Shown here: positions 9,527 to 27,029 of the stretch, one piece after another
Layout of the letters: every line of letters begins with the position of its first letter
Position numbering within the stretch: the stretch's first letter is position 1
DNA from: a phage
DNA: 64,000 nucleotides
NCBI GenBank assembly: GCA_018027755.1
Contig: GCA_018027755.1_4098.1
Strand: one strand, 5' to 3'
Notes under the pieces: generated by a model
What the model was told of the DNA's origin: nothing
The model's database searches: none
The model's input: the letters and a program-made list of their open reading frames with translations, nothing else
Program-made: the position numbers and the translations under genes

Positions 9527-9750
9527 TTACTGCAACTGTATATCAAGATATCAATGAAGAATTTCATTCTAAAATTGCGTTCTTATCATTTCCTGTCCTC
9601 CCAGTAGTTGGGTCAACGTTGAATCTTACCATTTGTGGGTTTGAGAAATATTATAAAGTTCTAGATATTGAGTACTGTGCTGATGTGTATTCATGTAATA
9701 GTGAAATTGCAATTCCAGTATCAATCGATATTATTGTAAAAGAGGTTTGA
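9523..9750 (+). CDS. hypothetical protein
   Basis: ORF in track; GTG start overlapping previous stop. Confidence 0.45.
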   Translation: MITATVYQDINEEFHSKIAFLSFPVLPVVGSTLNLTICGFEKYYKVLDIEYCADVYSCNSEIAIPVSIDIIVKEV

Positions 9751-10208
9751 TTATGTTTAAGAATTTTATGGTTATCGTAGCAGTACTGTTTGGTACATCA
9801 TGTTTCATTTCCCCAGTACACGCAGAAGAACAACGTCAAACTATTAAAACTATTGGGACTGGTAAAACTCCCCCTAAACGTACTGCTGAAGAATACATGC
9901 CTGAAATGCGTGAACGTTATCGTCAGACATACAGGGAAAAACATGCTAATGATAAACCCATCAAGAAGCATAAATGGGAAGTTGTTAAATCTCCTTCATT
10001 TTGTGCTGGATATGCTAAAGTAAAGATTGAGCAGCACAAAAACCAGTACTATAAAGATATGTATTACTTCTATGACTCCAGAATTTCTGACACAGATATG
10101 ATGGCAGGGAAGGTTGATAAAGAAGAATTTCTACAAGGCTATGATATGATGGACGATGACAAAATCATGGAATGCGTTGAAGTGTATGAAAAATACAGAG
10201 GCTTCTGA
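9747..10208 (+). CDS. secreted hypothetical protein
   Basis: N-terminal signal peptide MIMFKNFMVIVAVLFGTSCFISPVHA. Confidence 0.55.
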   Translation: MIMFKNFMVIVAVLFGTSCFISPVHAEEQRQTIKTIGTGKTPPKRTAEEYMPEMRERYRQTYREKHANDKPIKKHKWEVVKSPSFCAGYAKVKIEQHKNQYYKDMYYFYDSRISDTDMMAGKVDKEEFLQGYDMMDDDKIMECVEVYEKYRGF

Positions 10209-10684
10209 TGTTAACAATAGTGTTGTTGGTAAGTCCATTTGTGTATTTTGTGCTGTATAATATTTTTAGTAATGCTAATCATTTTAAATATGCACAAACA
10301 ATTGCAAAACATGAAGGATTTTGGAATTTTTTCCCAGCGTTACTATGCTCATATCTATACCATGAACGCTATTTCATTTTTCCTGAATATAAAAATTATG
10401 GTTATGATTCTAAAGTAAATGGTATAATTGAGTACTGTATAAGAAATTATATTAATAATAATGATAACGTCCAAGTAAGAATAGGAAATGGTAATATATC
10501 AAGAATAGTTTTCATACCTGATATACAAGACCCAATATACTTATATCCATATGATTATAGTATTAGTGTAGGTTGTTCGATACATGGTAGTAAATCTATG
10601 TACGATTATTTTATCTTACCACCAACACAAATTAGATTAATAGAAAAATATTTGAGGGAAAAGTTTGACAACAAAGATTCTTAG
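10208..10684 (+). CDS. membrane-anchored hypothetical protein
   Basis: N-terminal hydrophobic helix. Confidence 0.5.
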   Translation: MLTIVLLVSPFVYFVLYNIFSNANHFKYAQTIAKHEGFWNFFPALLCSYLYHERYFIFPEYKNYGYDSKVNGIIEYCIRNYINNNDNVQVRIGNGNISRIVFIPDIQDPIYLYPYDYSISVGCSIHGSKSMYDYFILPPTQIRLIEKYLREKFDNKDS

Positions 10685-10726
10685 TATTATAATTAACACA
10701 CCAAGTAACCCAAGGGGGGATGGAAA

Positions 10727-11185
10727 ATGGATGTATTAGCTACAAATTTCAAACGTAACACAGAAGAGCGTGAAGGTTATTTGAGTATTAGTGAAGTTGT
10801 CGATGACAATTTTAAACAATACATTTTTAATAGTGCAATTAAATTAAAATGCACAAAAGATTCACCTGATCGTAGCTTTACTAAATGGATTGCGTATTGG
10901 GAAGATTCACCAGTTGCAATTGAAATGACTGTGATTACAACAGTACTTGAAACTGGTTACATCAAAGCCATTATAGTTGATAAGAAAGTCCGTACTCTTG
11001 ATGAAATTAATCCATATCCAGCCCGAAATTCTAAAGTTTTTGGTGTGTTGGTTGATGGTAAATTTATGATAGAAAAAGATGCAAAGGAATATGTAATTAA
11101 TAAACTTCAAACTACATCAGAAAAAAAGGAAGTAGTGGACCAAAACTCTGTTGATGCAATCAAAAAAGCATGGGGACTAAAGTAA
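10727..11185 (+). CDS. hypothetical protein
   Basis: ORF in track; SD GGGGGGATGG upstream. Confidence 0.55.
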   Translation: MDVLATNFKRNTEEREGYLSISEVVDDNFKQYIFNSAIKLKCTKDSPDRSFTKWIAYWEDSPVAIEMTVITTVLETGYIKAIIVDKKVRTLDEINPYPARNSKVFGVLVDGKFMIEKDAKEYVINKLQTTSEKKEVVDQNSVDAIKKAWGLK

Positions 11186-11186
11186 T

Positions 11187-11609
11187 ATGTTCACACTAAG
11201 TAATGCAAAATATCTTTTTCTTATTAGTATTATTGGTTGGGTTATGGCTCCAGTGCTAAATGCACTGGGGTTTTCCGATGAACATAAACTTTTAAATGTT
11301 TCAGGTTTAATTCAGGGTATTTCATGGTATACATTAATTACATTTTCAGTGTGCATCAATACATTTGCCCGTGAACATCGACGTTTGTTATATCTGAAAG
11401 TATTTGGAACTACCCGATATAGTTTTGTTTACACTTTCATTTTAGTACCGTGTATGTTATATGCATTTGTATTTGATTACTATACATATCTATGGGTATG
11501 TGGAACTATGTTTGTTATGTTGGAATACATCAGAACTGTTCAAAACTCATATGCCGATGAATTTCATGATCTAGAAGTTAAACGAAAATTAACGGAGCTA
11601 AACAAATGA
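11187..11609 (+). CDS. multi-pass membrane protein
   Basis: Several hydrophobic segments. Confidence 0.5.
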   Translation: MFTLSNAKYLFLISIIGWVMAPVLNALGFSDEHKLLNVSGLIQGISWYTLITFSVCINTFAREHRRLLYLKVFGTTRYSFVYTFILVPCMLYAFVFDYYTYLWVCGTMFVMLEYIRTVQNSYADEFHDLEVKRKLTELNK

Positions 11610-12031
11610 GAGGTTATAATAAGATTTGTATTTTTGTATTTTTAGTTTGTGCATTCAATTCGTTTGGTTACTACTGTACAGAAAATAATATTTCATATGG
11701 TTTAAATCCTTTGTGGTTTACAATTTCTAATGTAGCACAAATTGGTATTGCTCTTATGTCTGCACTTATGTTCTGTCCAATTGTCACTATGGATACTGAT
11801 CATGAAAGGCTTGGATTTCTCCGTGATACTGGAGACGAACCTTACAGTAGATTGATTGTGTTGTATCCATTTATTGTTATTTTAGGTACTAACATCCAAC
11901 TTGGGTCATTATCTAATAGTGTTACATCAGCAGCTATTGCTATATTTGCATTCACATTTTTTATGGTACACAAATCAGTACTTAATTGGTATATCACAAA
12001 AATGGCAGAAGAAGGTACTAAAAATACTTGA
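11606..12031 (+). CDS. multi-pass membrane protein
   Basis: Several hydrophobic segments; overlapping junction. Confidence 0.5.
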   Translation: MRGYNKICIFVFLVCAFNSFGYYCTENNISYGLNPLWFTISNVAQIGIALMSALMFCPIVTMDTDHERLGFLRDTGDEPYSRLIVLYPFIVILGTNIQLGSLSNSVTSAAIAIFAFTFFMVHKSVLNWYITKMAEEGTKNT

Positions 12032-12056
12032 CATAATTTAGTATGTTATATATAAT
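12028..12056 (+). promoter_or_regulatory. sigma70-type promoter
   Basis: ttgacataatttagtatgttatatataat. Confidence 0.5.
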
Positions 12057-12090
12057 TATTTTGTTAAAAACAAATTAGAGTAAGGAACTT

Positions 12091-12342
12091 ATGAACATCG
12101 ATAAGGTCAAAGAACTTAGTGCTGCACTAATTAAGAATGAAGAAGTTTGTGAAGAACTTCGCAGTACTATCAAAGTTGAGTACGCACGACTCCAAGGTAT
12201 GCTTCAAGAATCAGAATGGGTAGTAACTAAATCTATCGAAGCAATCTATAAGGATATTGAATCCCTTTTCAACAAGAAAAGTAAGATTGAATCTGATTCA
12301 TATAACAAACGTAAAGAGTTATCTACTGCACTTGGTATCTAA
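12091..12342 (+). CDS. hypothetical protein
   Basis: ORF in track; SD AAGGAA upstream. Confidence 0.55.
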   Translation: MNIDKVKELSAALIKNEEVCEELRSTIKVEYARLQGMLQESEWVVTKSIEAIYKDIESLFNKKSKIESDSYNKRKELSTALGI

Positions 12343-12349
12343 AAGTATT

Positions 12350-12378
12350 TGACATAACAAATAATATGGAGTACAATG
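12350..12378 (+). promoter_or_regulatory. sigma70-type promoter
   Basis: ttgacataacaaataatatggagtacaat. Confidence 0.45.
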
Positions 12379-12416
12379 TGCTCCTAATTTAATTATCAGC
12401 TAAAAAGGAAAACATT

Positions 12417-12677
12417 ATGAAATCTATTCTCGTTGCAGTTAACCTGGTTGCTTCCCCATCTTTCAACTTCAAACAAGTTGTTGCTGATAATCTGAAGAAG
12501 ATCTGTCCAAACGCTGAATTAACTTTCTGTGTGTTTGATTCAGAAAAAGTAACTAAAGTTGATCTAAACTATCTTTTGAACGAAGTAAAAAGCGTTTCTG
12601 GTGAAAGTAACTTAAAAGTTCTTCATGATATTGCTGATGATTATGATGATACACTTGTAATTTCGGAGAAATTCTAA
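12417..12677 (+). CDS. hypothetical protein
   Basis: ORF in track; SD AAAGGAAAA upstream. Confidence 0.55.
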   Translation: MKSILVAVNLVASPSFNFKQVVADNLKKICPNAELTFCVFDSEKVTKVDLNYLLNEVKSVSGESNLKVLHDIADDYDDTLVISEKF

Positions 12678-12682
12678 ATAAA

Positions 12683-13102
12683 ATGTTTAGATTTCTTCAG
12701 TACTTAATCATTAAGTTCTTTGGTTATCATACGATTGAAGGAAAAGCTACACTTGCACATAAAATCTTTGTAGCATTATGTACGGGTGATTATGACGTAT
12801 TGAATAAGTACTGTAAATCGCAAGCATGTATTGATATAATGGCACTTCGTATCTATGAGTGCCAGTTCAATAGATATAATTTTTACCAGTACAGATTTGA
12901 TAAAGAAGAATTTGATAGCATCAAAATGCTAAAGAATTTATGTAACAATAAAAAGAATATGCATATATCAGAATTTGTTGCTTTGTATTTTTATTTAAAA
13001 AGTTCATTGTATATGAACACGATGCAAAGATTCGATACTAGAATTAATGTATTCACCGATAAAGAATTTTATATATACGATAAATTCTTAGATAAGGTTT
13101 AA
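12683..13102 (+). CDS. hypothetical protein
   Basis: ORF in track. Confidence 0.5.
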   Translation: MFRFLQYLIIKFFGYHTIEGKATLAHKIFVALCTGDYDVLNKYCKSQACIDIMALRIYECQFNRYNFYQYRFDKEEFDSIKMLKNLCNNKKNMHISEFVALYFYLKSSLYMNTMQRFDTRINVFTDKEFYIYDKFLDKV

Positions 13103-13103
13103 T

Positions 13104-13601
13104 ATGACAACTGTTTATATTGATAAACGATTAAATTTATTGATTACCGATTCTAGAGTTACGTCAACTATACCACGAAACTTATTTGGTTTTTTTCCAC
13201 TAAGACCAAAATATCAATATGGAGTTGTTAATCAAAAAACTTTATATGTACATGACCGTTTATTCAGTGCTAGTGGGGCAGTAAGTGAAATTGATAAAGT
13301 ACTGGATTGGTTAATTAATAAAGTACCAGTTATACCTGACAGAAAGTTAAGTTGCCATTGTGTGCTTCTTTCTAAAGATTATGTTATTCATATGATTTTA
13401 ACTAAAGGAAAGTTTATTAAAAAACTTGAATATCTACATGAAGACTACACTTTCTTTATGGGAAGTGGTGGAGAATACATGGTAGATGCTGCTATTCATG
13501 AAGAACATACAACTTTATATGATAAAGTGTTTAGTACTTTCATGGATGTGCATAACCATGATTGCTTCACAGATGATAATATTAATGTATATCGATTTTG
13601 A
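13104..13601 (+). CDS. hypothetical protein
   Basis: ORF in track. Confidence 0.5.
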   Translation: MTTVYIDKRLNLLITDSRVTSTIPRNLFGFFPLRPKYQYGVVNQKTLYVHDRLFSASGAVSEIDKVLDWLINKVPVIPDRKLSCHCVLLSKDYVIHMILTKGKFIKKLEYLHEDYTFFMGSGGEYMVDAAIHEEHTTLYDKVFSTFMDVHNHDCFTDDNINVYRF

Positions 13602-13622
13602 TTTCGTCATTAGGAGATGTAA

Positions 13623-14588
13623 GTGAAAAAGCTTGATTTAAATACAATTGCCGAAGAAGTTCTGGATGAATGTTTTGCTAATGAAGAAGTCAACACACTA
13701 GAAGCCTTAGATTTCGTTGAAGATAAAGATGAAAATGAAGGTAAAGTACAAAGCAGTTTCAAATATAATATTACACTTAAGCGACCACCAAATGTTTCCA
13801 ATGAAGATCTAATTCGTGATATTCAAGCTGGTATCAATGTAAAGAAAAACACTGAACTGTTAGTTCGTTACAATTATGGACTTATTATTGATGTAGCAAG
13901 TAAATGTACTTGTTATATCCCATTTGAAGATAAGATTTCATATGGTGTTGAGGGGTTCATGAGAGCACTAAAAACCTTTGATCTTAATAAGAATGTTAAG
14001 TTCATTACCTATGCTTCTTCTAGTATTTACATGACAGTCTATAACGAAAGTTCTGACGCTAACTATATGGTACACTTCCCACGTTATATGAGTGTTCATA
14101 AGATCAAAGTAAAAAGATTCTGCCAGGAATATATGCGTAAACATGGTGTTCGCCCAACTCCTGAAATAATCTCAGAGGGTACTGGGATTGAGATTCAGCA
14201 TGTTAATAATTGTTTGTTATTTCAAAGCGAATACACTTCGCTGGATGCACCATTAGACGGTGTTACAGATGGTACATTAGGTGACATTATTCATTCACCT
14301 GCTTCTGATTTTAACCTCAATGTTGATAGTATTCGTGCACCTTTACGTTATGCTATCAATGAACTGACTAACGAATTGAGTACTAAAGAACGTGAGATTA
14401 TCCAGCGTGTTCATGGTCTAGGTGAATATGAACCTGAAACGCTTCGTGAGATTGCTGATAATGGTTTTGTTGATGATAATGGAAAATATGTTAAATCCCG
14501 TTCATCAATACACCGAAAGTACAGTGAAGCTATGCAAAAGCTTAAGAAGCTAGTACTTGCAAAAGGGTACGAATACGAAGATTTCTAA
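13623..14588 (+). CDS. sigma-70 family RNA polymerase sigma factor
   Basis: GTG start after AGGAG; region-2-like segment (GVEGFMRALKTFDLNKNVKFITYASSSIYMTV) and region-4-like HTH (STKEREIIQRVHGL...TLREIA...RSSIHRKYSEAMQKLKK). Confidence 0.8.
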   Translation: MKKLDLNTIAEEVLDECFANEEVNTLEALDFVEDKDENEGKVQSSFKYNITLKRPPNVSNEDLIRDIQAGINVKKNTELLVRYNYGLIIDVASKCTCYIPFEDKISYGVEGFMRALKTFDLNKNVKFITYASSSIYMTVYNESSDANYMVHFPRYMSVHKIKVKRFCQEYMRKHGVRPTPEIISEGTGIEIQHVNNCLLFQSEYTSLDAPLDGVTDGTLGDIIHSPASDFNLNVDSIRAPLRYAINELTNELSTKEREIIQRVHGLGEYEPETLREIADNGFVDDNGKYVKSRSSIHRKYSEAMQKLKKLVLAKGYEYEDF

Positions 14589-14596
14589 AGAAAAAA

Positions 14597-14615
14597 GGTT
14601 GGCTTATGCCAACCT
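14597..14615 (+). terminator. intrinsic terminator
   Basis: ggttggcttatgccaacc followed by T7. Confidence 0.65.
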
Positions 14616-14619
14616 TTTT

Positions 14620-15140
14620 TTATGGGATGAAGTAAAAGTTTGTGATATAATTATCTTGTACAATTCTGTTGGCATGATATTCATGTACCTGATCCACTCG
14701 AAAACGTAGAGGGCAGTTGAGCAGTCCGACAGTGCGAACAGCAAAAGAAACCCGTTAGATGTGGGCATAGTTTGAACCCCTCACGGCAATGCGGCTGTAT
14801 AAAGAACCACGTTAGGATAGCTGGTGGTTCCTTGATAGACATATAAGGATAACACCTTACGAATTATCTAAGGGAGAGTTATCGAATTTTGTACAGGAAA
14901 GTTGCGTCCAAAATTTGAGTACTCACATTAAGTATTTGATTGCATAGATACTTAATGAAGATACACTATGTTTAAAAGTGTAGACCGTCATATGAAACTG
15001 AAGTAGAGAGAAACAGGATGACCCGCTTTCGCACTCGTTATGAGTAATCTTCAATGCAATAGCTCTGATACCATCAGCGTCAAATTTCCCTCCTTGGGGG
15101 GGGAAGAAAAATCCCTTCCTCAAATCCCGTCAATATTAAA
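14620..15140. other. ~0.5-kb non-coding stretch, GC-richer than its surroundings
   Basis: No credible ORF on either strand; sits between a terminator and a promoter (TTGACA 15153, TAGAAT 15176); contains hairpin-capable segments such as ccctccttggggggggaag. Confidence 0.4.
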
Positions 15141-15238
15141 AGTCCTTGACAGTTATTAATCATTCGCGTAGAATACGTAGTATTAGAAGCGAACAGACAT
15201 CTCGAAGAGATGGATGATTAACCATTAAGGAATATCAA

Positions 15239-15448
15239 ATGAATTCAGTAATCTTTTTAGTAGTCGCTTTCTCTGTTAATTCCGGTGTACAAATAACCCC
15301 AATGAATTCCATGAATCAATGCATAGCAGTACGTGATAGTACATACGAACAAGTAAACAAAGATATTTGGATTACAGTTAGTAAAGAACAAATGTGGTGT
15401 TACAATAGTAATACTAACACAAAGCTTATTGTAGGACAAACTCAATGA
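15239..15448 (+). CDS. secreted or membrane hypothetical protein
   Basis: N-terminal hydrophobic segment; SD AAGGAA upstream. Confidence 0.5.
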   Translation: MNSVIFLVVAFSVNSGVQITPMNSMNQCIAVRDSTYEQVNKDIWITVSKEQMWCYNSNTNTKLIVGQTQ

Positions 15449-15675
15449 GTTATGGCGTTCGTTTTGAGATTCGTTCTATTGTCATCAATGCAGAGAAACA
15501 AGTATCGTTGGATGGTGATATACGTGAAATTTATCTATCATGTATCCGTGCGAAATCTGAAGCAGATGCCTTAGTACAAATGTATAGTTTTAACTTTTCA
15601 AATGGATTCTATTTGGTACGAGTTATTGAAGTGAAAAAAGTACTTATTGGTTGTAGCATAGAAGGATTAATGTAA
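15445..15675 (+). CDS. hypothetical protein
   Basis: ORF in track. Confidence 0.5.
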   Translation: MSYGVRFEIRSIVINAEKQVSLDGDIREIYLSCIRAKSEADALVQMYSFNFSNGFYLVRVIEVKKVLIGCSIEGLM

Positions 15676-15676
15676 A

Positions 15677-16465
15677 ATGAGCACTATAGATGAACTGATT
15701 CGACGGAATTCAAAATATTACCAACCATCAGAAATTGTAGGTAACATTACCAAATCAGAGTTTGGTCCAAATACTCGAAAACTCATTCATGTAATGTCAC
15801 GTGATGGCTTTAAATGTGATTGTTGCGGTGAATCTAATGTAGTATTCACTTTACACAAGCACAGTACTAAAGATCGTTATAAATTCAGACCTTATGTACT
15901 TAAAGGGAAACGCCTTGTACGCATGACGTTAGACCATAATGTACTGGACTGTCTTCAGGGCGGTAATGATAAAGAGAACATGACTGCACTGTGTGAAGAT
16001 TGTAACGCATTACGCCAGCATAAGTTTGCTGAATACAGTGAGTTTAAACACTGGTATCATAACGCGGATCGTTCAATCGAGCCTGACGTTAACTACTGCT
16101 TCATTGAGTACATTAAGAATGCCAAAGATACATACATTCTTAAATCAATGTCACCTATTACCGTGTTTCCTGAGAACCTATTCACTACATTAAAGAATAG
16201 TTTTATTGTAGGTGATATTGATGCATTCAAGTATTTTGACAAAGGTGCAAAACATTTTGAAATTCAATGTCTTAGTACTGCACTATGTGAACTCATTAAA
16301 ATTTACATAAAAGAGTATTTGGGTATTGACAATGTACGTGTACCAGAGTATACTTTTTCTATTGAATTCGATTGTGAATCAATCAAAGAGTTTGGAATTC
16401 TTTTCAATAAACAAATAGAACTTGCAATTCAAAACGAAATCAAGTACTATACTACTAACATTTAA
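15677..16465 (+). CDS. HNH endonuclease
   Basis: CDCCGE...LDHNVLDCLQGGND.EN..ALCEDCN motif. Confidence 0.7.
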   Translation: MSTIDELIRRNSKYYQPSEIVGNITKSEFGPNTRKLIHVMSRDGFKCDCCGESNVVFTLHKHSTKDRYKFRPYVLKGKRLVRMTLDHNVLDCLQGGNDKENMTALCEDCNALRQHKFAEYSEFKHWYHNADRSIEPDVNYCFIEYIKNAKDTYILKSMSPITVFPENLFTTLKNSFIVGDIDAFKYFDKGAKHFEIQCLSTALCELIKIYIKEYLGIDNVRVPEYTFSIEFDCESIKEFGILFNKQIELAIQNEIKYYTTNI

Positions 16466-16480
16466 TCAGAGGAAATTATC

Positions 16481-16663
16481 ATGCAAATTATCATTCTTAT
16501 CGTTGGCATCATGCTGGGTGTTTACGGTCACTCCTGGATGAACGAGAAGTTTCCTAATACGCGTCCTGAGTATTGCAGTACTAATGTATTCCAGAATGGT
16601 GAGAAACCAAAGGAAAGTATTGGTAAAAAGCTGGACAAAGTACTTGATGTGATCAATGAATAA
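16481..16663 (+). CDS. small membrane protein
   Basis: N-terminal TM MQIIILIVGIMLGV. Confidence 0.5.
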   Translation: MQIIILIVGIMLGVYGHSWMNEKFPNTRPEYCSTNVFQNGEKPKESIGKKLDKVLDVINE

Positions 16664-16673
16664 GGGAAATAAA

Positions 16674-16874
16674 ATGTTTAAACCGAATTCCAATGTTGGT
16701 AAGAAAGTTCAATTACTTGAGGATGTATCCACTCTGAGTGGGATTTTCCCAAGAGGTCACATCATGACTATTATTGCCGAAACATCCCGTGGCTGGGACT
16801 TGGAAGATGCTGATGGTAATCGCATCCTTGAAGCTGGCTTCTATGGTCATCGTGAATATAAAATCATTGATTAA
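16674..16874 (+). CDS. hypothetical protein
   Basis: Track ORF 16656..16874; start moved to ATG after GGGAAATAAA. Confidence 0.5.
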   Translation: MFKPNSNVGKKVQLLEDVSTLSGIFPRGHIMTIIAETSRGWDLEDADGNRILEAGFYGHREYKIID

Positions 16875-16875
16875 G

Positions 16876-19205: not shown

Positions 19206-19723
19206 TGGATATTAATGAGTTGTTGAAATTAGTGTTTAATCGTGAACGCCGCGATACAAGACCAATTGAATATCAAGATGTGATACGCATTGAAACTGAT
19301 TTCTGTTATGGTAAAACAACTCATGACCTTTTGAATCTCTCTGGAAAACGCTATGCTGATGTTTGTTTTTCAGAGAGAAGTGATGGTTCGGAAATAACGA
19401 GTACTGATATTGTTTGTTACGCACGCAGTGCTGATAAATCTTATGAAATAGAACTTATATATTCCCCTAGTTCTAAAACAAATCATCACCGCCATATTTT
19501 ATATGATGTTTACACACCACCTGGTATTGCTGAATATTTTGTTATTGATTATAGTACTGAAGAAAATGTGTTTCAACAAAGTTTGATTCATAACTTTGAG
19601 GTTAATGATCCATTAGTGCCAAAGTTATTCAAACTACTTGACACCATCGATGTTGATTTTGAATTTGTTATGTGTATTAGAACTTCTTTATTCAATGAAT
19701 TCATGGAACTTTTTAATATATGA
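19205..19723 (+). CDS. hypothetical protein
   Basis: ORF in track. Confidence 0.5.
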   Translation: MDINELLKLVFNRERRDTRPIEYQDVIRIETDFCYGKTTHDLLNLSGKRYADVCFSERSDGSEITSTDIVCYARSADKSYEIELIYSPSSKTNHHRHILYDVYTPPGIAEYFVIDYSTEENVFQQSLIHNFEVNDPLVPKLFKLLDTIDVDFEFVMCIRTSLFNEFMELFNI

Positions 19724-19941
19724 ATAGATACTATGTTGTGTATGAACACGTCTCTGAATTTAATAACATACGAGGTTATTCCAGAGTTGTCACAAAGATG
19801 GATGTATTCATTCGTGCTCTTAGTGAAGTGGATGCACTGTTTAAATTGTTTGATGAAATTACAAAGTATAACACACCCAAAACACACCGCTATGTGGAAA
19901 CTGTACATAGCATTATACTAACTGAAAGTGATGAGGAATGA
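19720..19941 (+). CDS. hypothetical protein
   Basis: ORF in track. Confidence 0.5.
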   Translation: MNRYYVVYEHVSEFNNIRGYSRVVTKMDVFIRALSEVDALFKLFDEITKYNTPKTHRYVETVHSIILTESDEE

Positions 19942-19944
19942 TAA

Positions 19945-20163
19945 ATGAATTTATATCTAGTTGAAGGTTTAGTACAAGTCTATAAACCAGAAGGTGAAGG
20001 TCAACGTTTTTCACACGTAGAAGAATTTAAGTACGTTGTACAGGCTGATGGTCAGTACGATGCGGAAATTCAAGTAGATGAATCATTCCGTAAGAAAAAT
20101 GAAATTGGTAAATTTCAATACCAGAACTTACAATATAAAGTATGGCCTAGTATAAATGACTAA
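19945..20163 (+). CDS. hypothetical protein
   Basis: ORF in track. Confidence 0.5.
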   Translation: MNLYLVEGLVQVYKPEGEGQRFSHVEEFKYVVQADGQYDAEIQVDESFRKKNEIGKFQYQNLQYKVWPSIND

Positions 20164-20371
20164 GATGTGGTGGTGTCATGGTGTATATAACGTGTATGTA
20201 AATGGTAGATATAAAATGTCTAGTACCTATGCAAGACGTGTTAATGCGAACAACCAAGTTGATGCTGCTTGTGAGATCATTGAGTGGTATGCTGAGTTCA
20301 ATGCACCTGACTATATGTACGAAATAGTTACAATAAATGTTGTACAAATCGATACATCTTTGATACAATAA
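20156..20371 (+). CDS. hypothetical protein
   Basis: ORF in track. Confidence 0.45.
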   Translation: MTKMWWCHGVYNVYVNGRYKMSSTYARRVNANNQVDAACEIIEWYAEFNAPDYMYEIVTINVVQIDTSLIQ

Positions 20372-20401
20372 CCACATCAAAAAATTGCATCTGAGGATAC
20401 T

Positions 20402-21062
20402 TATGTTAGTTAATCTTAATTTCATCACTTCACCTGACTGGGCATTACGTGGAGTTTCTTTAAACTTCAAGGAAACTATGTTTGACTACATTGGTGAGTG
20501 TACATTGGTAAATGCAACTTTTGATCCAAATCATCCGTTTTGGGCTGAAATTCATGATCCAAATGTAAACAATACATCTGTTATGACTATTGTCCAGACT
20601 AAACATGCAGGTATCCTTGCAGGTTATCGACCTGCACATGCAATTGAACATTTCACTGATTACGATGTCGTGGATGAATACCCAATGATCCATGAAGATG
20701 GAAGTCTATACACATCTGAAGACTTCCGTGCTATCTTTAATAGTACTGATGATATTCTACCAAGTGGACGTCCACGTCCTGAGTCTTATCTTATGCATCC
20801 ATCTTATGGTGTAGCAGATACGCTTGAACAGATTATGAAGAAGTACAAGAACCTAATTGAAGGTCCAGAAGAAATTGTCTTGTGCTATCACCCAGTACTT
20901 AAGTCTGAACAACCAAAGGATGGTGGATGGCGTTGGCATAAGAATGGTGAGTATATCGGTACTAAACGAAGTAAAGAACGTTTTGAGTACTTGTATGATG
21001 AGCCAGATGTTGATGTGGTTTTGTGTTATAATTTTATTAAGGTGAAAAAGAAATGTATCTAG
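20402..21062 (+). CDS. hypothetical protein
   Basis: Track ORF 20385..21062; start moved to ATG after GAGGATACTT. Confidence 0.5.
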
Positions 21063-21295
21063 TACTAAGTTTTGTTGTTGCACTATTGTTTATGTTTTAT
21101 CCTACACTAGTGGCATTAGCCACTAGACGAACGATGGTAGATCTCACTACTGTATTCTTGCTAAACGTGGCATTAGTACTGGTGTCTATTATCATTCCAG
21201 TGAGCTTTACAGTTATTGATATTATTTCGGTATTACTCTTCGTGTTAAGTTATCTTATGCTTATTGAAGAAACAAATGTTGACAAACGTTCGTAG
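21053..21295 (+). CDS. small membrane protein
   Basis: Hydrophobic throughout. Confidence 0.5.
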   Translation: MYLVLSFVVALLFMFYPTLVALATRRTMVDLTTVFLLNVALVLVSIIIPVSFTVIDIISVLLFVLSYLMLIEETNVDKRS

Positions 21296-21352
21296 TACTG
21301 TATAATGGTTCCTGTAGTCTGAAACTTAACACTTAAACTTGAGGTAAAAAAT

Positions 21353-21679
21353 ATGCTATCAGTACTAATTTCAATTCCGTCTTTAATTCTGATTTGGCTT
21401 CTGGTTTACGAATGCTTTATTACTGATGATAATGATAAAAAAGAGTTCTCTGAGTTGTTTATGCTTGATTCACCGATTGTGCGTATTTTCTATACAGTCG
21501 TTGTGGTTTCAGTAATTGTATGGGTTTTGAGTTTTATCTTCCCACTCGGTGCAGTAGTTAAAACTTTGGATTTAGTTGAGAACTTTGTTGCAATTATGTG
21601 GCTAATCAAAGCACTATTTGCAGGAAATGTTAAAATTTGGATTGATATTATCAAATTCAAGTTCACGAATAAGATGTAA
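21353..21679 (+). CDS. membrane protein
   Basis: Several TM segments; SD GAGGTAAAAAAT upstream. Confidence 0.55.
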   Translation: MLSVLISIPSLILIWLLVYECFITDDNDKKEFSELFMLDSPIVRIFYTVVVVSVIVWVLSFIFPLGAVVKTLDLVENFVAIMWLIKALFAGNVKIWIDIIKFKFTNKM

Positions 21680-21757
21680 CAGTCAAAATACCTCTATAGT
21701 ATTAAATACTTCTGTACATATATATAGTACAGAAGTATTTCTCGTTAGAGGTTTGTT

Positions 21758-22117
21758 ATGAAAAGTTATATAAAATTAATAGCACTTGTGTGTGCATTAT
21801 TTTCATGTTTTAGTTATGGTGCAGCAGCAGAAACATATTGTCGTAGTACTAAGGGAACGTGGCATGTATTGACTAACGACCCTAGAAATGGTAAAAATAT
21901 AGTTGTTGATGGCGTGATTTATCGTTTTAAAGTAGAAAGTATTATTGGTAATAAAAAAATCTCGACTTATAGAGATGATTCTGGTACATTAGCAAACGTA
22001 ATATTAATTGTAGACCCAAGAACTGGTAATGGTGATATCTATATAGTAATTTACTTGGACTCATCGGTACGCCGTGACCTAGATATAGATAAATTGAACT
22101 TACACTGTGAAATATAG
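21758..22117 (+). CDS. small secreted protein
   Basis: Signal peptide ...CFSYGAAAE; Cys near both ends. Confidence 0.55.
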   Translation: MKSYIKLIALVCALFSCFSYGAAAETYCRSTKGTWHVLTNDPRNGKNIVVDGVIYRFKVESIIGNKKISTYRDDSGTLANVILIVDPRTGNGDIYIVIYLDSSVRRDLDIDKLNLHCEI

Positions 22118-22128
22118 GACTTAAAAAA

Positions 22129-22506
22129 ATGGTAAACACTATTTTACTTTTGTTGTTGAATATTCCAATTATTCTGTCTTTTTTAATTTCTATTTTTATG
22201 GCAGGATATTGTTTAGTTGCAGTAATTCATTTTATTTTAACAAACAAATATGTCCTAATTTCTAAGCTTGATTCTATTTTTGCTTGCGATTCAATGGCTT
22301 ATAACTTATGGTTAATTTGTTCTTGCATTATGGGAGTAACTTTCCTTCTGCATGTATTTGATGTCCTTGACCAAAAGTTCGTATACATCAGTACTGGATT
22401 GGCTCTTTATCCTGCTACGTGGTACTTGATTTACGTTGGTGATATATGGTATAGTACTTATAAAGAATATCAGTACAAGAAATCACTTAACGTTGGAGGA
22501 AAATAA
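22129..22506 (+). CDS. membrane protein
   Basis: Several TM segments. Confidence 0.5.
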   Translation: MVNTILLLLLNIPIILSFLISIFMAGYCLVAVIHFILTNKYVLISKLDSIFACDSMAYNLWLICSCIMGVTFLLHVFDVLDQKFVYISTGLALYPATWYLIYVGDIWYSTYKEYQYKKSLNVGGK

Positions 22507-22508
22507 TC

Positions 22509-22859
22509 ATGAAAATTATTTTATTTTTTGTATGTATGTTAATGTGTGGATTGTCATATGCTGAACCATTGGAAGGTTTAGTTTGTACAGATGGTAATAT
22601 TAAACATATCTATCAAGGTGATAGTGACGATCGAGATATTGTATATATTGATGGACAATCATATACGTTTGTTAAAGAGCATACAGTAGGCGACATTAGC
22701 TTCACTGAGTTTTCTAACGACACAGACCCTAACTTCTTAGCGTTTATTGAAGTAGATGTATATGAAGATAGTAATGGTACACAATATGCTAAATTAGTTA
22801 TGATGCGTCGTGGTGCTAAAGAAACTAGTTTTGGTGGCTTGTGTAAATATAAGGATTGA
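22509..22859 (+). CDS. small secreted protein
   Basis: Signal peptide ...GLSYAEP; Cys near both ends. Confidence 0.55.
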   Translation: MKIILFFVCMLMCGLSYAEPLEGLVCTDGNIKHIYQGDSDDRDIVYIDGQSYTFVKEHTVGDISFTEFSNDTDPNFLAFIEVDVYEDSNGTQYAKLVMMRRGAKETSFGGLCKYKD

Positions 22860-22863
22860 TATT

Positions 22864-23055
22864 ATGTTGATTTATCAAAGTGATAATATTCGTGTTATGC
22901 AGCATCCCTACTTACAAATCTTTGATGTGCAGCAGTATATGGAAGGTGATGACCCAAGAACCTATGGTCGTAAGTATGATTACTTCACTGTAAAGCAGTG
23001 TAATAATATTAACGAAGTACGACAATTAGTTCAAGAACTTCAAAACAAAGGTTGA
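22864..23055 (+). CDS. hypothetical protein
   Basis: Track ORF 22810..23055; start moved to ATG after AAGGATTGAT. Confidence 0.45.
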   Translation: MLIYQSDNIRVMQHPYLQIFDVQQYMEGDDPRTYGRKYDYFTVKQCNNINEVRQLVQELQNKG

Positions 23056-23073
23056 CTTCGGTCAGCCTTTTTT
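23049..23073 (+). terminator. intrinsic terminator (GGTTGACTTCGGTCAGCC family)
   Basis: Hairpin with TTCG loop followed by a T-run. Confidence 0.65.
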
Positions 23074-23109
23074 GTTATAATTCTCTTAATAAATTAGAGG
23101 ATTTTAATT

Positions 23110-23550
23110 ATGTATGTATATCGTTTTGAACTTAAATTTAGTTACATTGAACCTAACTTAGATCCTGCACGAACTGTAGGTCCGTTTGCACGGTATTCAA
23201 CCAGATACAGTACTAAAAATGGATTTGACCGTTTGCTCATGACTACACCTTCTCAATTCCAACCTGAACCAACTGAGGATGGGATCTATTCAATCAAAAG
23301 TGGATGGGTATTTGGCTGTCAAAGTTTGAAAGATTTGTTCAGATTCTTCACTATGGACTTAGGTAAATTGCATCGTGCTGGGTTTGCTATATCTGTATAT
23401 GAAGTTCCAGACCACCATGTAGACATTGGTCGTAATCAGGTTCAGTACTATTGCGGTAGTGCTAAATTAGTTCGTATCATGTCAGTTAAGGAAGCAAAGG
23501 ATGAGTTCCGACAAAGTAAAAGAGAAACACATGAGGTAATATATGGATAA
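23110..23550 (+). CDS. hypothetical protein
   Basis: SD AGAGGA upstream. Confidence 0.55.
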   Translation: MYVYRFELKFSYIEPNLDPARTVGPFARYSTRYSTKNGFDRLLMTTPSQFQPEPTEDGIYSIKSGWVFGCQSLKDLFRFFTMDLGKLHRAGFAISVYEVPDHHVDIGRNQVQYYCGSAKLVRIMSVKEAKDEFRQSKRETHEVIYG

Positions 23551-23887
23551 AACTCAAATAGAATTAAAGAAATTTGTTTCATTCTATCTTCCTGATGACC
23601 CACGTAATTCACAAAAAGATATTGAATATTATAATATCCTATCTAAACAGTTAATGAGAAAGTTTCAACAGTGTTTAACTATATTCAATACAGATGGAAG
23701 ACGTAGATACCGAATCGTTTCAATGAATGATGAAAACGCAAATTTCTTTGATTACGATGTGGTTTTTAGAGCATATAATGATGATCGTATAAAATTAAAT
23801 TATGATCAAATTATACTTGACCTGAATGTTATATGTGTTATAATCACTCACGTAGCCGAACTTAATGGTTTTAAAGAATGGTATTGA
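23543..23887 (+). CDS. hypothetical protein
   Basis: ORF in track. Confidence 0.5.
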   Translation: MDKTQIELKKFVSFYLPDDPRNSQKDIEYYNILSKQLMRKFQQCLTIFNTDGRRRYRIVSMNDENANFFDYDVVFRAYNDDRIKLNYDQIILDLNVICVIITHVAELNGFKEWY

Positions 23888-23901
23888 ATAGAGGATAACA
23901 T

Positions 23902-24168
23902 ATGAAGCTTAAATTACAATATAATGGATTTACTTTACGTAATGATACTGAATTTATTAATCGTTCTCCTGGTGCTGAACTGTTTTTACGAGAGATGAAC
24001 ATTCCTTTCATCATTACTACAGTGGGCGACCGTGAAGTTCTACAATACGCAGAGCATCCGATCATTGATGTTCCTTGGTACTCTGAGCATATGTACATGG
24101 ATATGGCACGTCGCTACAACTGTAAGTTCGTAGTTGAAGGTGATAAAATTACAGTCGAATTTAAATAA
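23902..24168 (+). CDS. hypothetical protein
   Basis: SD AGAGGA upstream. Confidence 0.5.
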   Translation: MKLKLQYNGFTLRNDTEFINRSPGAELFLREMNIPFIITTVGDREVLQYAEHPIIDVPWYSEHMYMDMARRYNCKFVVEGDKITVEFK

Positions 24169-24179
24169 GGTAAATTAAA

Positions 24180-24473
24180 ATGATCAGTACTTCAGTTAAT
24201 GAAAGCATCGTCGCTGACGTAGAAATGGTTAAAGAATGTGCAGATGAAACTCTTCGTGATATGTACATTAATGATTTAATTACTGAATACGGTAGTCGTG
24301 GTGTACACGAATTTATTCGTTTAAGTGGAGAGTTGATGAAAAATCGAATTCGTATGAAGCTTAACGTACATCCAAAAGCATGGGCATTTACATTAAAATA
24401 CGCAGAAGATATTGTGAATTTGCGTCGAACTGAAGTATATGAACGTTTGCACAATGGTATGTTAGATAAATGA
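24180..24473 (+). CDS. hypothetical protein
   Basis: ORF in track. Confidence 0.5.
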   Translation: MISTSVNESIVADVEMVKECADETLRDMYINDLITEYGSRGVHEFIRLSGELMKNRIRMKLNVHPKAWAFTLKYAEDIVNLRRTEVYERLHNGMLDK

Positions 24474-24525
24474 TTGTAAAATAGGAATTCTTAAATGAAT
24501 TCCTTTTTGTTTATAAGGTATAGTA

Positions 24526-24747
24526 ATGAAATATATAGTACTTGTACTGATATTATTCAGTACTGTTGTAAGTGCTAAACAAAAAGAATATATTAAATGT
24601 ATAAATTATGAAGAGAAATATGTTGAAACATATAAAAAAAGTATAATTAAAAACGTTTCGATTACTAACAGAGCAACAATCATTGTACTTAAAAATGGGT
24701 TAATTATGCTATATAAACCACACGTTAAATGTGAAATTATTAATTGA
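24526..24747 (+). CDS. small secreted protein
   Basis: Signal peptide ...STVVSAKQ. Confidence 0.5.
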   Translation: MKYIVLVLILFSTVVSAKQKEYIKCINYEEKYVETYKKSIIKNVSITNRATIIVLKNGLIMLYKPHVKCEIIN

Positions 24748-24754
24748 GGAAATT

Positions 24755-25327
24755 ATGAATCGTAAAGGTCGTTTTAAAGTATCAAAAAAGAACAAAAGTT
24801 CTAGGTTTAAACATATTGTTTTAACAGTTAAATCTAACAAAGATTTAACTGCACTTAGTAAAAAGATAATTTCATCTAAGATTGAAGTATCATACGTAAA
24901 TTCATTAAAATATATGAATGTCAAACCACTGGACCAACTCATTTCACTTATATTTGAACGTAATGATTTTGAGATATCAGTAGATGATTATAGAGCCTAT
25001 AATGCTGGTTTCATTAATGTTACTTGTAATAAAAAACTAACTGAGTTGGAAAATTTGTCATGTATAATAAATCTAGATAAAGGTGTTGTGAAGTACCATT
25101 TTGTACATTTCACTAATATCAATAATGGAATGGGTGTACAATCCAGACCTATAGTGCCTACGTGTGATGTTACTAAATTAGCAAAGCTCAATGATGAAGA
25201 ATATTTTCAAGAAAGCATTGTAACTGAGCATTTAGATGATATAATAGCTACTTACAAAGAATGCATATGGGTGTTGAATGCTATAAAACCTAAATTGTGT
25301 TTAATGAATATTGTTCGTGATTTATGA
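24755..25327 (+). CDS. hypothetical basic protein
   Basis: Track ORF 24731..25327; start moved to ATG after GAGGAAATT. Confidence 0.5.
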   Translation: MNRKGRFKVSKKNKSSRFKHIVLTVKSNKDLTALSKKIISSKIEVSYVNSLKYMNVKPLDQLISLIFERNDFEISVDDYRAYNAGFINVTCNKKLTELENLSCIINLDKGVVKYHFVHFTNINNGMGVQSRPIVPTCDVTKLAKLNDEEYFQESIVTEHLDDIIATYKECIWVLNAIKPKLCLMNIVRDL

Positions 25328-25340
25328 ATGGGGAATCGTA

Positions 25341-25784
25341 ATGAGTTGGGTAAATGTTAATAGTATTGAACTTAACGAACAAGATATTTTTGCATTTGTA
25401 AATTTAACTAATAACACAGTACTAAAAGGGCGTTTGTTCAGTGCTAGTGATGGGTACAAATGGATCTCTTTGATGGATGATAGTGGTGTGATTTATAATG
25501 TAATGCAATTACCCCAATGGGTATATAGTAACACTGCTGACGATGTTCTTACCGCAGTTATGCGTGAGTTTGAAAAACTCCCAGGTGGTGATATCAAAAA
25601 CAAAGTTTTTAATGCAGAACGTAAAAATTATACAGCACAGCAATTGGAATCCCTTGCCATTGCTGCTTATCAAGCTGCTATTAAGAAGCCAGAGTGCGTT
25701 ATTCTTAAGTATGTACCAGACTTAAAACTTACGTTGGAAAACATGGATGCATTCATTTTTACATCTGAACTTGATCAGTACTAA
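25341..25784 (+). CDS. hypothetical protein
   Basis: Track ORF 25311..25784; internal ATG start. Confidence 0.5.
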   Translation: MSWVNVNSIELNEQDIFAFVNLTNNTVLKGRLFSASDGYKWISLMDDSGVIYNVMQLPQWVYSNTADDVLTAVMREFEKLPGGDIKNKVFNAERKNYTAQQLESLAIAAYQAAIKKPECVILKYVPDLKLTLENMDAFIFTSELDQY

Positions 25785-25899
25785 TTTAACTTTGGGACAA
25801 CCATTCTTATTATGATATAATGTTTTATGTCATTCGATATAAATGACAACGGAACTATAAATATTATAGTAAAATTTATCTCTTATAGGAGTTATAAAA

Positions 25900-26283
25900 A
25901 TGGTTGATAAATGGAATAAGAAAGATCCATCACATGATGTTGATATTTCTGGTCTAGACAATGCACATAAGCACAAGTATCTAGATTCACTAGGTCTTCT
26001 AAAACCAGACCAAAGTCTTGCACATGATCGTCCATCCCGTGAAAAAGCATTTAGCCTAGAATCACTAGGTCATGAGCTTAATCGTGTGTTTGAGGATCAC
26101 CCAATCTATGTACGTGATATTATCGAGAAACTTAAAGTAACTCCTAAAGAGCACTTTAAAGCAACTGTACACTCTGCATTCCGTGCATTACATGAATCTC
26201 TAAAGAAAACTCACAATCTTCGTAAAATTCATGATGAAATCGTGAATGCAATCGAAAGTGAAAAACATAAGTTCAAGAAGTAA
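25900..26283 (+). CDS. hypothetical protein
   Basis: SD AGGAG upstream; shares a YLDSLGLLKP-like motif with the ORF at 27627. Confidence 0.55.
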   Translation: MVDKWNKKDPSHDVDISGLDNAHKHKYLDSLGLLKPDQSLAHDRPSREKAFSLESLGHELNRVFEDHPIYVRDIIEKLKVTPKEHFKATVHSAFRALHESLKKTHNLRKIHDEIVNAIESEKHKFKK

Positions 26284-26288
26284 TAAAA

Positions 26289-26308
26289 GGGTTGACTAAG
26301 GTCAGCCC
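26289..26308 (+). terminator. intrinsic terminator (GGTTGACT..GGTCAGCC family)
   Basis: gggttgactaaggtcagccc followed by a T-rich tail. Confidence 0.55.
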
Positions 26309-26350
26309 TTTGTTGTATCATAACTTCTCAATATAACTGAGGTATCATAT

Positions 26351-26464
26351 ATGCAAGGTTTGAAATTTGTAGTTGCTGCACTCATCGCTGCTGTTGTAGT
26401 GGGTACAGTATGTTATTCAATTGACACCTATATCAATACACCTAGTGTTGAACAAACCAAATAA
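26351..26464 (+). CDS. small membrane peptide (37 aa)
   Basis: Short ORF MQGLKFVVAALIAAVVVGTV... after GAGG; not in track. Confidence 0.3.
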   Translation: MQGLKFVVAALIAAVVVGTVCYSIDTYINTPSVEQTK

Positions 26465-26472
26465 GGGATATC

Positions 26473-26736
26473 ATGGCTGAAACATTATCACTATATGCGT
26501 TAGTACTGTTATTTGTCGGATTTCTTCCCGCACTCATTACAGCCATTCGTGTTGTTAAACATGAAGCTGCATTGATTGTATGTAGTATTGGGTCGAACAT
26601 TCTATTGTATTTCTTTTTGACAAATACTATTGTACTGTTTGCTTTCTTTATCATGATTCTGTGGGTACTTGTAATTCTCGGATTCTTCATTTGGTCATTG
26701 GTTGATCCTAAGAAAAAATCAGGAGAAGTGAAATGA
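26473..26736 (+). CDS. membrane protein
   Basis: Three hydrophobic segments. Confidence 0.5.
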   Translation: MAETLSLYALVLLFVGFLPALITAIRVVKHEAALIVCSIGSNILLYFFLTNTIVLFAFFIMILWVLVILGFFIWSLVDPKKKSGEVK

Positions 26737-27029
26737 AATTAATTATAGCAATGATAATGTGTTTGGCTTTCCCTGTACTGGCTACTCCTAATCTGGACTG
26801 CACACTGTTGCGTTCAGATGGTGACACACTTGAAATCAACACATATGAACTCTTTGGTCCAAGTGTAGTGGAGAATGAAACCACCTACAATTTCAAAGCT
26901 ATTGACTTTGAAGGTAATGTTCCAGTACTAACTACAATGACTATTGACAAAACTACTTTACTCGGACGAATCACCACACAACGCGGAGAAAGTAAAACAT
27001 TCACAGCGAAAGCTGACTGTAACTACTAA
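26733..27029 (+). CDS. small secreted protein
   Basis: Signal peptide ...AFPVLATP; Cys near both ends. Confidence 0.55.
   Translation: MKLIIAMIMCLAFPVLATPNLDCTLLRSDGDTLEINTYELFGPSVVENETTYNFKAIDFEGNVPVLTTMTIDKTTLLGRITTQRGESKTFTAKADCNY

Follow-up and report, generated by a model that had tools for sequence, protein, structure and literature searches.

Why would a jumbo phage carry a set of very small genes whose products seem bound for the envelope of its host? The question is raised by a 64,000-nucleotide stretch of phage DNA (NCBI GenBank assembly GCA_018027755.1, contig GCA_018027755.1_4098.1; hereafter the window, with positions counted from its first letter). At least eight small open reading frames (ORFs) in the window, seven between 9747 and 27029 and one at 63076, had been proposed from the sequence to encode N-terminal signal peptides, and together to form a repertoire of envelope-targeted small proteins, possibly for superinfection exclusion or envelope remodelling. 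From 9700 to 27100, the window matches Escherichia jumbo phages of the 121Q/PBECO4 group (Asteriusvirus, genomes of about 350 kb) at 98–99% identity over 96% of the length. The genes here are small, tightly packed and on the + strand, with a GC content of about 33%, and nearly all of them are annotated as hypothetical in related records. We compared this region with its syntenic counterparts in UE-S1, vB_Ec-M-J, JNE01, A4 and Klebsiella phage RaK2. The eight products are predicted to be Sec-exported proteins, and we tentatively read them as early periplasmic binders that may act in superinfection exclusion.

Conserved export signals in eight small proteins

Export signals were assessed using an explicit heuristic of our own, not SignalP. 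It calls for a net positive n-region, an h-region of 10–18 residues that ends by residue 30 and has a 9-residue hydrophobic core, a −3/−1 cleavage site or a lipobox, and no later transmembrane (TM) segment. When the predicted signal peptides and lipoboxes were put through this heuristic, none of the eight ORFs was rejected: six pass as signal-peptidase-I type and two as lipoproteins. The eight genes are as follows, with a slash marking the predicted cleavage site.

9753 to 10208, + strand: exported protein F, 151 aa; signal peptide MFKNFMVIVAVLFGTSCFISPVHA/EEQ; mature part 127 aa with 2 Cys
17750 to 17995, + strand: lipoprotein G, 81 aa; lipobox LLTA/C16, invariant Asp at +2, two further Cys
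18363 to 18638, + strand: lipoprotein H, 91 aa; lipobox FLTA/C20, Asn at +2 (Asp in JNE01), four further Cys
21758 to 22117, + strand: secreted protein A, 119 aa; signal peptide of about 24 aa (...SYGAAA/ETYC); mature part 95 aa with Cys4 and Cys93
22509 to 22859, + strand: secreted protein B, 116 aa; signal peptide of 18 aa (...GLSYA/EPLEG); mature part 98 aa with Cys8 and Cys94
24526 to 24747, + strand: secreted protein E, 73 aa; signal peptide of 17 aa (...TVVSA/KQKE); mature part 56 aa with Cys8 and Cys52
26733 to 27029, + strand: secreted protein C, 98 aa; signal peptide of 17 aa (...FPVLA/TPNLDC); mature part 81 aa with Cys6 and Cys79
63076 to 63375, + strand: secreted protein D, 99 aa; signal peptide of 19 aa (...FAVNA/SLDV); mature part 80 aa with Cys12 and Cys79; within the direct terminal repeat

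For the first gene, originally placed at 9747, the signal peptide stands and the start does not: an ATG at 9753, preceded by GAGG at a distance of 7 nt, replaces the TTG two codons upstream. The LTAC lipobox proposed for 17750 and 18363 was recovered as LLTA/C and FLTA/C, and is invariant in orthologues. Shine-Dalgarno sequences 6–9 nt upstream back the long starts of 17750 (GGAGG, 7 nt before the start), 21758, 22509, 24526, 26733 and 63076. The start of 18363 overlaps the upstream stop codon (ATGA), which implies translational coupling. No twin-arginine motif is visible in any of the eight sequences.

The heuristic is specific. It passes 9 of the 111 dominant-strand genes (the eight plus 12417, a weak pass with a short h-region, which was considered as a further member and left uncertain), compared to 1 of 214 shadow ORFs. 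Among control proteins of phage T4, Spackle (Sp) passes and Imm, Soc, Dmd, gp40, 61.2 and 61.4 fail; Imm.1 passes with a LAGC lipobox. The gene for Imm.1 (12637–13014 of the compared T4 region) adjoins imm and encodes a textbook lipoprotein signal, MKIAILVIALGLAGC, and its RefSeq name, ‘iduronate sulfatase’, looks doubtful for a 125-aa protein. The lipobox pattern is a loose one, which also flags LASC within the T4 Sp signal peptide, so what counts for the lipoprotein calls is that the Cys sits where the h-region ends and, in the case of 17750, that the lipobox recurs in distant phages: it is kept in Felixounavirus wV8 and Cronobacter phage CR9, and distant homologues have LAGC.

Conservation points the same way. 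The heuristic is passed by 33 of 34 orthologues, at identities down to 31% (RaK2), and the sole failure merely lacks an N-terminal Lys or Arg; for the six proteins of signal-peptidase-I type the count is 21 of 22. The signal-peptide sequences themselves are largely replaced between orthologues, while the n-h-c layout and small −3/−1 residues are kept in 33/34. For 21758, for example, MKSYIKLIALVCALFSCFSYGAAA compares with MKYVIITITFLIGLISSSANA and with MHILLSLVLSTILLSFLPASVSA in RaK2, where a protein of 31% identity retains the h-region, the cleavage site and both Cys residues. Four orthologues of 9753 keep the signal peptide. From these predicted signals we infer that all eight proteins are very probably exported to the envelope.

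The eight genes are not scattered at random, as seven of them fall within the 43 genes, out of 111 in the window, that lie between 9.7 and 27.1 kb (hypergeometric p = 0.005). In that interval 16 of the 43 genes are envelope-targeted (7 exported proteins and 9 membrane proteins). Conserved export signals, even Cys counts (below) and this gene content give the proposed repertoire of envelope-targeted small proteins good support as a set. As a single family it does not hold, since the eight comprise two paralogue pairs and four unrelated proteins.

A possible ninth exported protein was noted and left uncertain. The 69-aa product of 15239–15448 (+ strand) has a hydrophobic N-terminus, MNSVIFLVVAFSV, and two conserved Cys residues, and lacks a positive n-region or a clean cleavage site; an internal Met is used as its start in some annotations.

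Paired cysteines, predicted folds and protein families

Several members of about 100 aa had been said to carry one Cys near each end of the mature part. This layout is found in 21758, 22509, 24526, 26733 and 63076, thus in five of the eight exported proteins, and in none of 68 background small genes (Fisher p = 3e-6). It spans at least three sequence-unrelated groups, and both terminal Cys residues are retained in all orthologues. An even, non-zero number of Cys residues in the mature part is seen in 8/8 exported proteins compared to 22/68 background small genes (p = 3e-4). A structure model of 63076 is a six-stranded all-beta domain (pLDDT 91), and the model of 22509 is an eight-stranded beta domain (pLDDT 69). 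In BFVD, the one family matched was the protein's own.

The MliC/PliC periplasmic lysozyme inhibitors (PF09864), in which a disulfide joins the N- and C-terminal strands of an eight-stranded beta-barrel and so closes it, were considered as relatives and rejected on sequence grounds. There is no Pfam match, hhalign gives at most 0.7% for the profiles of A/B (21758/22509), C/D (26733/63076) and E (24526), and the S.SG..Y and W[ST]KG loop motifs are absent from the A4 alignment.

A single family for all five Cys...Cys proteins was likewise rejected, as hhalign of the mature parts links just two pairs and leaves 24526 alone. The proteins 21758 and 22509 are paralogues (93% probability, E 3.4e-7). 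An exhaustive HMMER scan of 1.84 billion representatives found 8 clusters of their family, every full-length one with a signal peptide and both terminal Cys residues; by these searches the family is restricted to this jumbo-phage lineage. For 26733 and 63076 hhalign gives 55% (E 1.2e-4), with the common alignment pattern C-T...T-G...TT.xID..T.kG.it...C, and one joint profile retrieves both groups from 5.8 billion proteins searched. Alignment and joint profile search thus support treating 26733 and 63076 as one paralogous family, in which just two Cys and one Gly are invariant.

Other members of the 26733/63076 family come from rV5-like phages, from jumbo phages of Salmonella and Klebsiella, and from a partial Alcyoneusvirus sequence of 52 kb. 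In Salmonella phage SE_PL (1830–2869 of the compared region) and JNE01 (18474–20767), members lie directly upstream of the orthologue of 27627–28886, a virion protein beginning MPG.F...GHSD.WSD.NRR.NS. Because distant jumbo phages place the family at this site, the position of 26733 looks ancestral and 63076 looks like a duplicated copy.

No relatives of 24526, 9753, 17750 or 18363 could be detected among the other exported proteins. Three of these fall into families of unknown function, namely 24526 in phrog_31284, 9753 in phrog_36332 and 18363 in phrog_31263. The lipoprotein 17750 is a member of phrog_902: all 9 sequences of the 17750 family match this PHROG (best E 1.5e-14), and 17750 itself gives E 1.5e-13 at full length and E 1.2e-6 for the mature part alone. 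A total of 582 phage records contain phrog_902 (Felixounavirus, Certrevirus and many Vibrio phages), all unannotated; its members share the lipobox, Asp or Asn at +2, the motif LP.E[LM] and the Cys pair C...CPN, features kept in wV8 and CR9. Nothing sets 17750 apart from this family and, as the family has no known function, membership gives no mechanism. Scans of all eight proteins with Pfam, NCBIfam and PADLOC gave nothing significant. The families are orphans or uncharacterised, but their general kind, early exported accessory proteins of phages, is a known one.

Promoters, gene units and membrane partners

Several of the exported genes lie in units beside genes for small membrane proteins, and some units can be delimited by promoters and terminator-like hairpins. 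The elements concerned are listed here.

10665, 12028, 16971, 21279 and 60883, + strand: perfect 12/12 sigma-70 promoters (TTGACA-16/17-TATAAT)
21053 to 21295, + strand: M0, a 2-TM membrane protein by TM prediction; first gene of a five-gene block, with orthologues as far as RaK2 in the same position
21279 to 21306, + strand: perfect sigma-70 promoter (TTGACA-16-TATAAT) that precedes 21353, inside the 3' end of 21053
21353 to 21679, + strand: M1, a multi-TM membrane protein whose gene directly precedes that of secreted protein A; 3 TM segments in the RaK2 orthologue
22129 to 22506, + strand: M2, a multi-TM membrane protein between secreted proteins A and B
23047 to 23070, + strand: terminator-like hairpin, a 10-bp stem followed by a T run; closes the unit 21279–23047
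26473 to 26736, + strand: M3, a 3-TM membrane protein whose stop overlaps the start of 26733
62997 to 63024, + strand: near-consensus sigma-70 promoter (TTGATA-16-TATAAT, 11/12), about 50 nt upstream of 63076
63634 to 63650, + strand: terminator-like hairpin, a 7-bp stem with 5 G-C pairs and a T run; closes the two-gene unit 63076–63627

The unit between the 21279 promoter and the 23047 terminator holds 21353, 21758, 22129, 22509 and a short ORF at 22810–23055, with 21053 lying upstream of it. The gene order of the five-gene block 21053–22859 is kept in RaK2, a phage of a different genus, at 25–46% identity, and all three membrane partners are multi-TM proteins there. Four perfect promoters, all on the + strand, are found in the 19 kb from 9 to 28 kb, along with several 11/12 sites. 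From 57.5 to 64 kb, promoter-like sites are enriched (33, compared to 18.9 +/- 4.2 in shuffles). In vB_Ec-M-J the orthologue of 63076 lies 6 kb from the genome end, inside a 21.5-kb direct terminal repeat, and a gene in this repeat is present in two copies per genome. In the RaK2-like phage CBB, the sigma-factor region and the adjacent terminal repeat were assigned to the early class, and in the annotation 4 proteins are listed as putative lipoproteins and about 50 as putative membrane proteins (PMC5259590). Given these promoters and positions, the exported genes are probably expressed early.

A rule by which each secreted protein has a membrane partner was considered and does not hold. It applies to 21353/21758, 22129/22509 and 26473/26733 only; a partner is absent for 63076, for 24526, and for the 63076-family genes in A5-4, SE_PL, phiKp_21 and JNE01. 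The membrane partners are not paralogues of one another.

The cassette 26473–27029 is variable: 121Q and PBECO4 lack it, and the group of BF17, CMSTMSU and vB_Ec-M-J has it. Immediately downstream of it, 27080–27622 (+ strand) encodes a homing endonuclease with NUMOD4 and HNH_3 domains, which has no orthologue in six syntenic loci (JP4, vB_Ec-M-J, JNE01, A4, RaK2 and UE-S1). This endonuclease could explain exchange of the cassette between lineages. An extra gene for a 78-aa multi-TM protein follows the 24526 orthologue in vB_Ec-M-J (EcMJ_535, 16568–16804) and in JNE01 (16548–16796), and is absent from the window; EcMJ_535 gives a sub-threshold E of 0.014 against PF14373 (Imm_superinfect). On this comparison the slot after 24526 appears to be a second swap-prone site for small envelope proteins.

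Absence from the virion

Could the eight be parts of the particle? That was rejected for those with annotated orthologues. The virion proteome of phage phAPEC6 comprises 62 proteins, and gp074c (the 9753 orthologue), gp047c and gp040c (the 24526 orthologue) are absent from it, while products of neighbouring genes are present. The orthologues of 17750, 18363 and 21758 are unannotated in the phAPEC6 record MK817115.1 (they lie at about 8551–8796, 9164–9439 and 12559–12918), and for that reason could not be detected in the mass-spectrometry search of the virion. The particle does hold a 96-kDa protein of the lysozyme family (phAPEC6 gp241).

A tentative role in superinfection exclusion

Our best overall explanation, tentatively held, is that the eight are Sec-exported early proteins of a 121Q-like jumbo coliphage that bind envelope components, most likely in superinfection exclusion. 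Six would be cleaved by signal peptidase I and freed into the periplasm, and two would be anchored by lipid. One or two disulfides could form in each protein once it reaches the oxidising periplasm. Five of the proteins would have just one, linking the opening and closing strands of a small all-beta domain into a compact binding module that resists proteases. Transcription by host sigma-70 RNA polymerase would begin soon after DNA entry, partly together with the small multi-TM phage membrane proteins. By stoichiometric binding of envelope components (candidate targets being receptors, the DNA-entry route or the tail-associated wall hydrolase), the proteins may leave the infected cell able neither to admit nor to support a second phage. 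This would be superinfection exclusion or receptor masking, as with T5 Llp, Cor and T4 Sp/Imm. Disulfide formation, early timing and the entire functional assignment are, like export itself, inferred from what was computed, namely export signals, conservation, Cys parity, paralogy, beta folds, promoters and synteny.

The stoichiometric-binder design is suggested because the proteins are predicted to be early, exported, small and disulfide-stabilised, with few invariant residues beyond Cys. Exclusion is ranked first because characterised phage proteins of such design are exclusion factors. The presence or absence of the 26473–27029 cassette between close relatives was also counted for an exclusion-like design, and envelope-targeted genes as a whole diverge significantly faster than their cytoplasmic neighbours in 4/5 genome comparisons. 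By analogy with the known systems, exclusion or entry blocking may be the main role of at least some of the eight, a proposal that we put forward a little more cautiously than the overall explanation. We rank exclusion or entry blocking above a mixed set, then enzyme inhibitors or immunity proteins, lysis timing and, last, non-export.

The closest likeness is to the T5 protein Llp, an early outer-membrane lipoprotein of 61 residues in which a Cys11–Cys58 disulfide, common to Cor, constrains the termini (PMC9586334). The same termini-stapling layout of Cys residues is seen in 21758, 22509, 24526, 26733 and 63076. Cor, like Llp, is an outer-membrane lipoprotein. Both proteins are small, are made soon after infection, are Sec-exported and act from the periplasmic side, and 17750 and 18363 are likewise small lipoproteins with predicted internal disulfides. 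However, there is no sequence relationship, and the five window proteins with terminal Cys pairs are predicted to be soluble and not lipidated. No PDB chain is found at E <= 1 by the 17750-family profile, although the FhuA-Llp structure has been solved, and none by 18363 either. The T4 Sp protein is a secreted protein with a 97-aa precursor, a mature part of about 75 residues and two Cys residues, similar in size to 63076, and in both the signal peptide is soon followed by a short stretch of the form C-x3-M-T-x-[DE]-x-T. The 96-kDa lysozyme-family protein of the virion is conceivable as a target of the Sp type. The T4 Imm protein resembles 26473 in being a small multi-TM protein (83 and 87 aa, respectively), and 26473 directly precedes a secreted-protein gene; two TM segments are predicted in Imm and three in 26473.

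A number of results weigh against exclusion. The searches made for every family returned no homology to any characterised exclusion protein, and sequence and profile searches of the whole PDB, which includes FhuA-Llp and Spackle, gave no match for any family. The faster divergence is driven by the membrane proteins; for the signal-peptide proteins alone it is significant in only 1/5 comparisons. The total of promoter-like sites from 9 to 28 kb is not above that in shuffles (87 compared to 97.6), and the perfect matches alone stand out. No expression or localisation data for the eight proteins were found in the literature searched. Conservation of the block 21053–22859 as far as RaK2 fits a core infection step at least as well as an arms-race accessory.

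The predicted location of 17750 is a further point of this kind. Asp at +2 with a permissive +3 residue is the rule for inner-membrane retention of lipoproteins (PMC9595528; PMC5727369), and 17750 has an invariant Cys-Asp-Ala (18363 has Cys-Asn-Asp, and Cys-Asp-Glu in JNE01). If Ala is a permissive residue at +3, 17750 would be retained in the inner membrane, unlike the outer-membrane Llp, and would be positioned where the DNA passes through and not at a receptor in the outer membrane.

Lastly, three GenBank labels in relatives (Cor, Spackle and Imm) would seem to favour exclusion, and all three fail direct tests and are unsupported by sequence comparison. The 17750 orthologue is labelled ‘Cor’ in vB_Ec-M-J. 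Its match to phrog_1119 (E 0.0079; best family member 7e-4) is confined to residues 1–48, and the mature part alone gives no phrog_1119 match at E <= 1, which marks the hit as a signal-peptide artefact. The 63076 orthologue is labelled ‘protein spackle’ in fEgEco12, the report of which used BLASTP and HHpred and leaves the label undiscussed. There is no match of 63076 to PF25676 at E <= 1, compared to 1.6e-44 for T4 Sp itself; hhalign gives 28%, over the signal peptide and about 10 residues only (the C...MT.[DE].T stretch); the profile search of PDB is negative; and the predicted fold is all-beta, not the Spackle fold. The 26473 orthologue is labelled ‘immunity to superinfection’ in vB_Ec-M-J. 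In this case no PF14373 match is found at E <= 10 in a scan that gives 7.4e-16 for T4 Imm, hhalign against T4 Imm gives 15%, and the BLASTP match (E 0.001) covers 31 residues only.

A more ambitious version of the exclusion reading is that the block 21053–22859, found in this jumbo-phage lineage only, encodes an undescribed multi-component envelope machine, a new class of superinfection exclusion, which we consider rather unlikely. In the periplasm, the two paralogues would be disulfide-stapled beta-barrels held in place by the three small inner-membrane proteins, and the assembly would seal the cell against a second DNA injection or neutralise an incoming tail lysozyme. If true, the mechanism would be unrelated to Imm/Sp, Llp/Cor or Sie proteins.

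Alternative explanations

Instead of sharing a function, the exported proteins may be a mixed set, unrelated to one another and each with its own task in the envelope (for example modulation of porins or transporters, envelope stress responses, vesiculation or peptidoglycan turnover), their genes being co-located since early accessory genes cluster. We regard this as a serious possibility, if an unlikely one. It accommodates the six sequence-unrelated groups, the mutually unrelated membrane partners, the failure of the membrane–secreted pairing to recur around 63076-family genes in other phages, and a conservation that ranges from genus-wide (21758 and 22509, to RaK2) to strain-variable (26733); a neighbouring block at 29.9–37.2 kb is also rich in small membrane proteins. 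It accounts less readily for the five proteins from at least three unrelated groups that combine a signal peptide with a terminal Cys pair, which hints at a shared stable-binder mode.

It is improbable, in our estimate, that the proteins are periplasmic inhibitors of, or immunity proteins against, enzymes with no part in entry, shielding the wall or membrane of the infected cell from, for example, host autolysins, the phage's own endolysin ahead of lysis, or toxins of competitors such as colicins and effectors of type VI secretion systems.

A part in lysis timing is less probable again, whether as periplasmic sensors that act like antiholins, as T4 RI does, or as spanin-like lipoproteins. Small periplasmic or lipid-anchored proteins encoded beside small membrane proteins would suit such a role, and one member of the 17750 family has a very weak match to a PHROG of Rz-like spanins (E 0.075). 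However, PHROG and Pfam gave nothing significant for RI, RIII, holins or spanins, the units have early-type promoters and are distant from any annotated lysis gene, and the wV8 homologue of 17750 lies between DNA polymerase and ligase and not in a lysis cassette. Moreover, both lipoproteins lack a TM segment at the C-terminus, and no i-spanin gene is embedded in or overlaps theirs.

That the proteins are not exported at all, the hydrophobic N-termini being uncleaved anchors or chance stretches of an AT-rich genome with mis-called starts, is very improbable: the low GC content favours Phe, Ile and Leu codons, some annotations start 21758 and 22509 later (at residues 11 and 10, respectively, in the PHROG models, and with a shorter gene in UE-S1), and the export calls come from our heuristic and not a dedicated predictor, but the rarity of shadow-ORF passes, the Shine-Dalgarno sequences before the long starts and the persistence of the signal in orthologues argue otherwise, as do h-regions of 10–18 residues with A-x-A-type sites, which are too short for a stable TM helix, and a Cys parity that fits the periplasm.

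Consequences for jumbo-phage annotation

Jumbo-phage genes are mostly of unknown function, and a 17-kb early block has here been sorted into a concrete, testable class, with more than one third of its genes predicted to be envelope-bound. Together, the block and 63076 contribute two lineage-restricted paralogue pairs of putatively stapled periplasmic beta proteins and a lipoprotein family present in hundreds of virulent phages. The labels Cor, Spackle and Imm in GenBank records should not be propagated, and at least one published annotation, that of phAPEC6, lacks three of the genes. Should some of the proteins indeed block secondary infection, this would matter for the design of phage cocktails, as Asteriusviruses are being proposed for therapy, and would add new small, stable binders of envelope targets.

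Neighbouring gene families

Small membrane proteins continue downstream of the block, where they account for 10 of 20 genes between 27.1 and 37.5 kb. Among them is a group of paralogous 3-TM proteins of about 112–141 aa, with no Pfam match, between 29944 and 37152 (+ strand); two members, 29944 and 30286, match each other at E 5e-10.

29944, 30286, 34713, 35051, 35733, 36354 and 36781, + strand: genes of the small 3-TM paralogue block

On the opposite strand, 37838–52874 holds about a dozen paralogous genes whose products, of roughly 370–450 aa, contain RCC1-like repeats (PF25390, PF13540) and match one another at E 1e-10 to 1e-52. The phAPEC6 virion contains ‘DNA condensation proteins’ of about 40 kDa, and size and RCC1-type naming suggest that these are orthologous to the RCC1-like genes of the window. 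Finally, in the terminal-repeat part of the window, the small + strand genes at 59601–59840 and 61615–61884 are paralogues, with 66% identity over 79 aa (E 1e-34).

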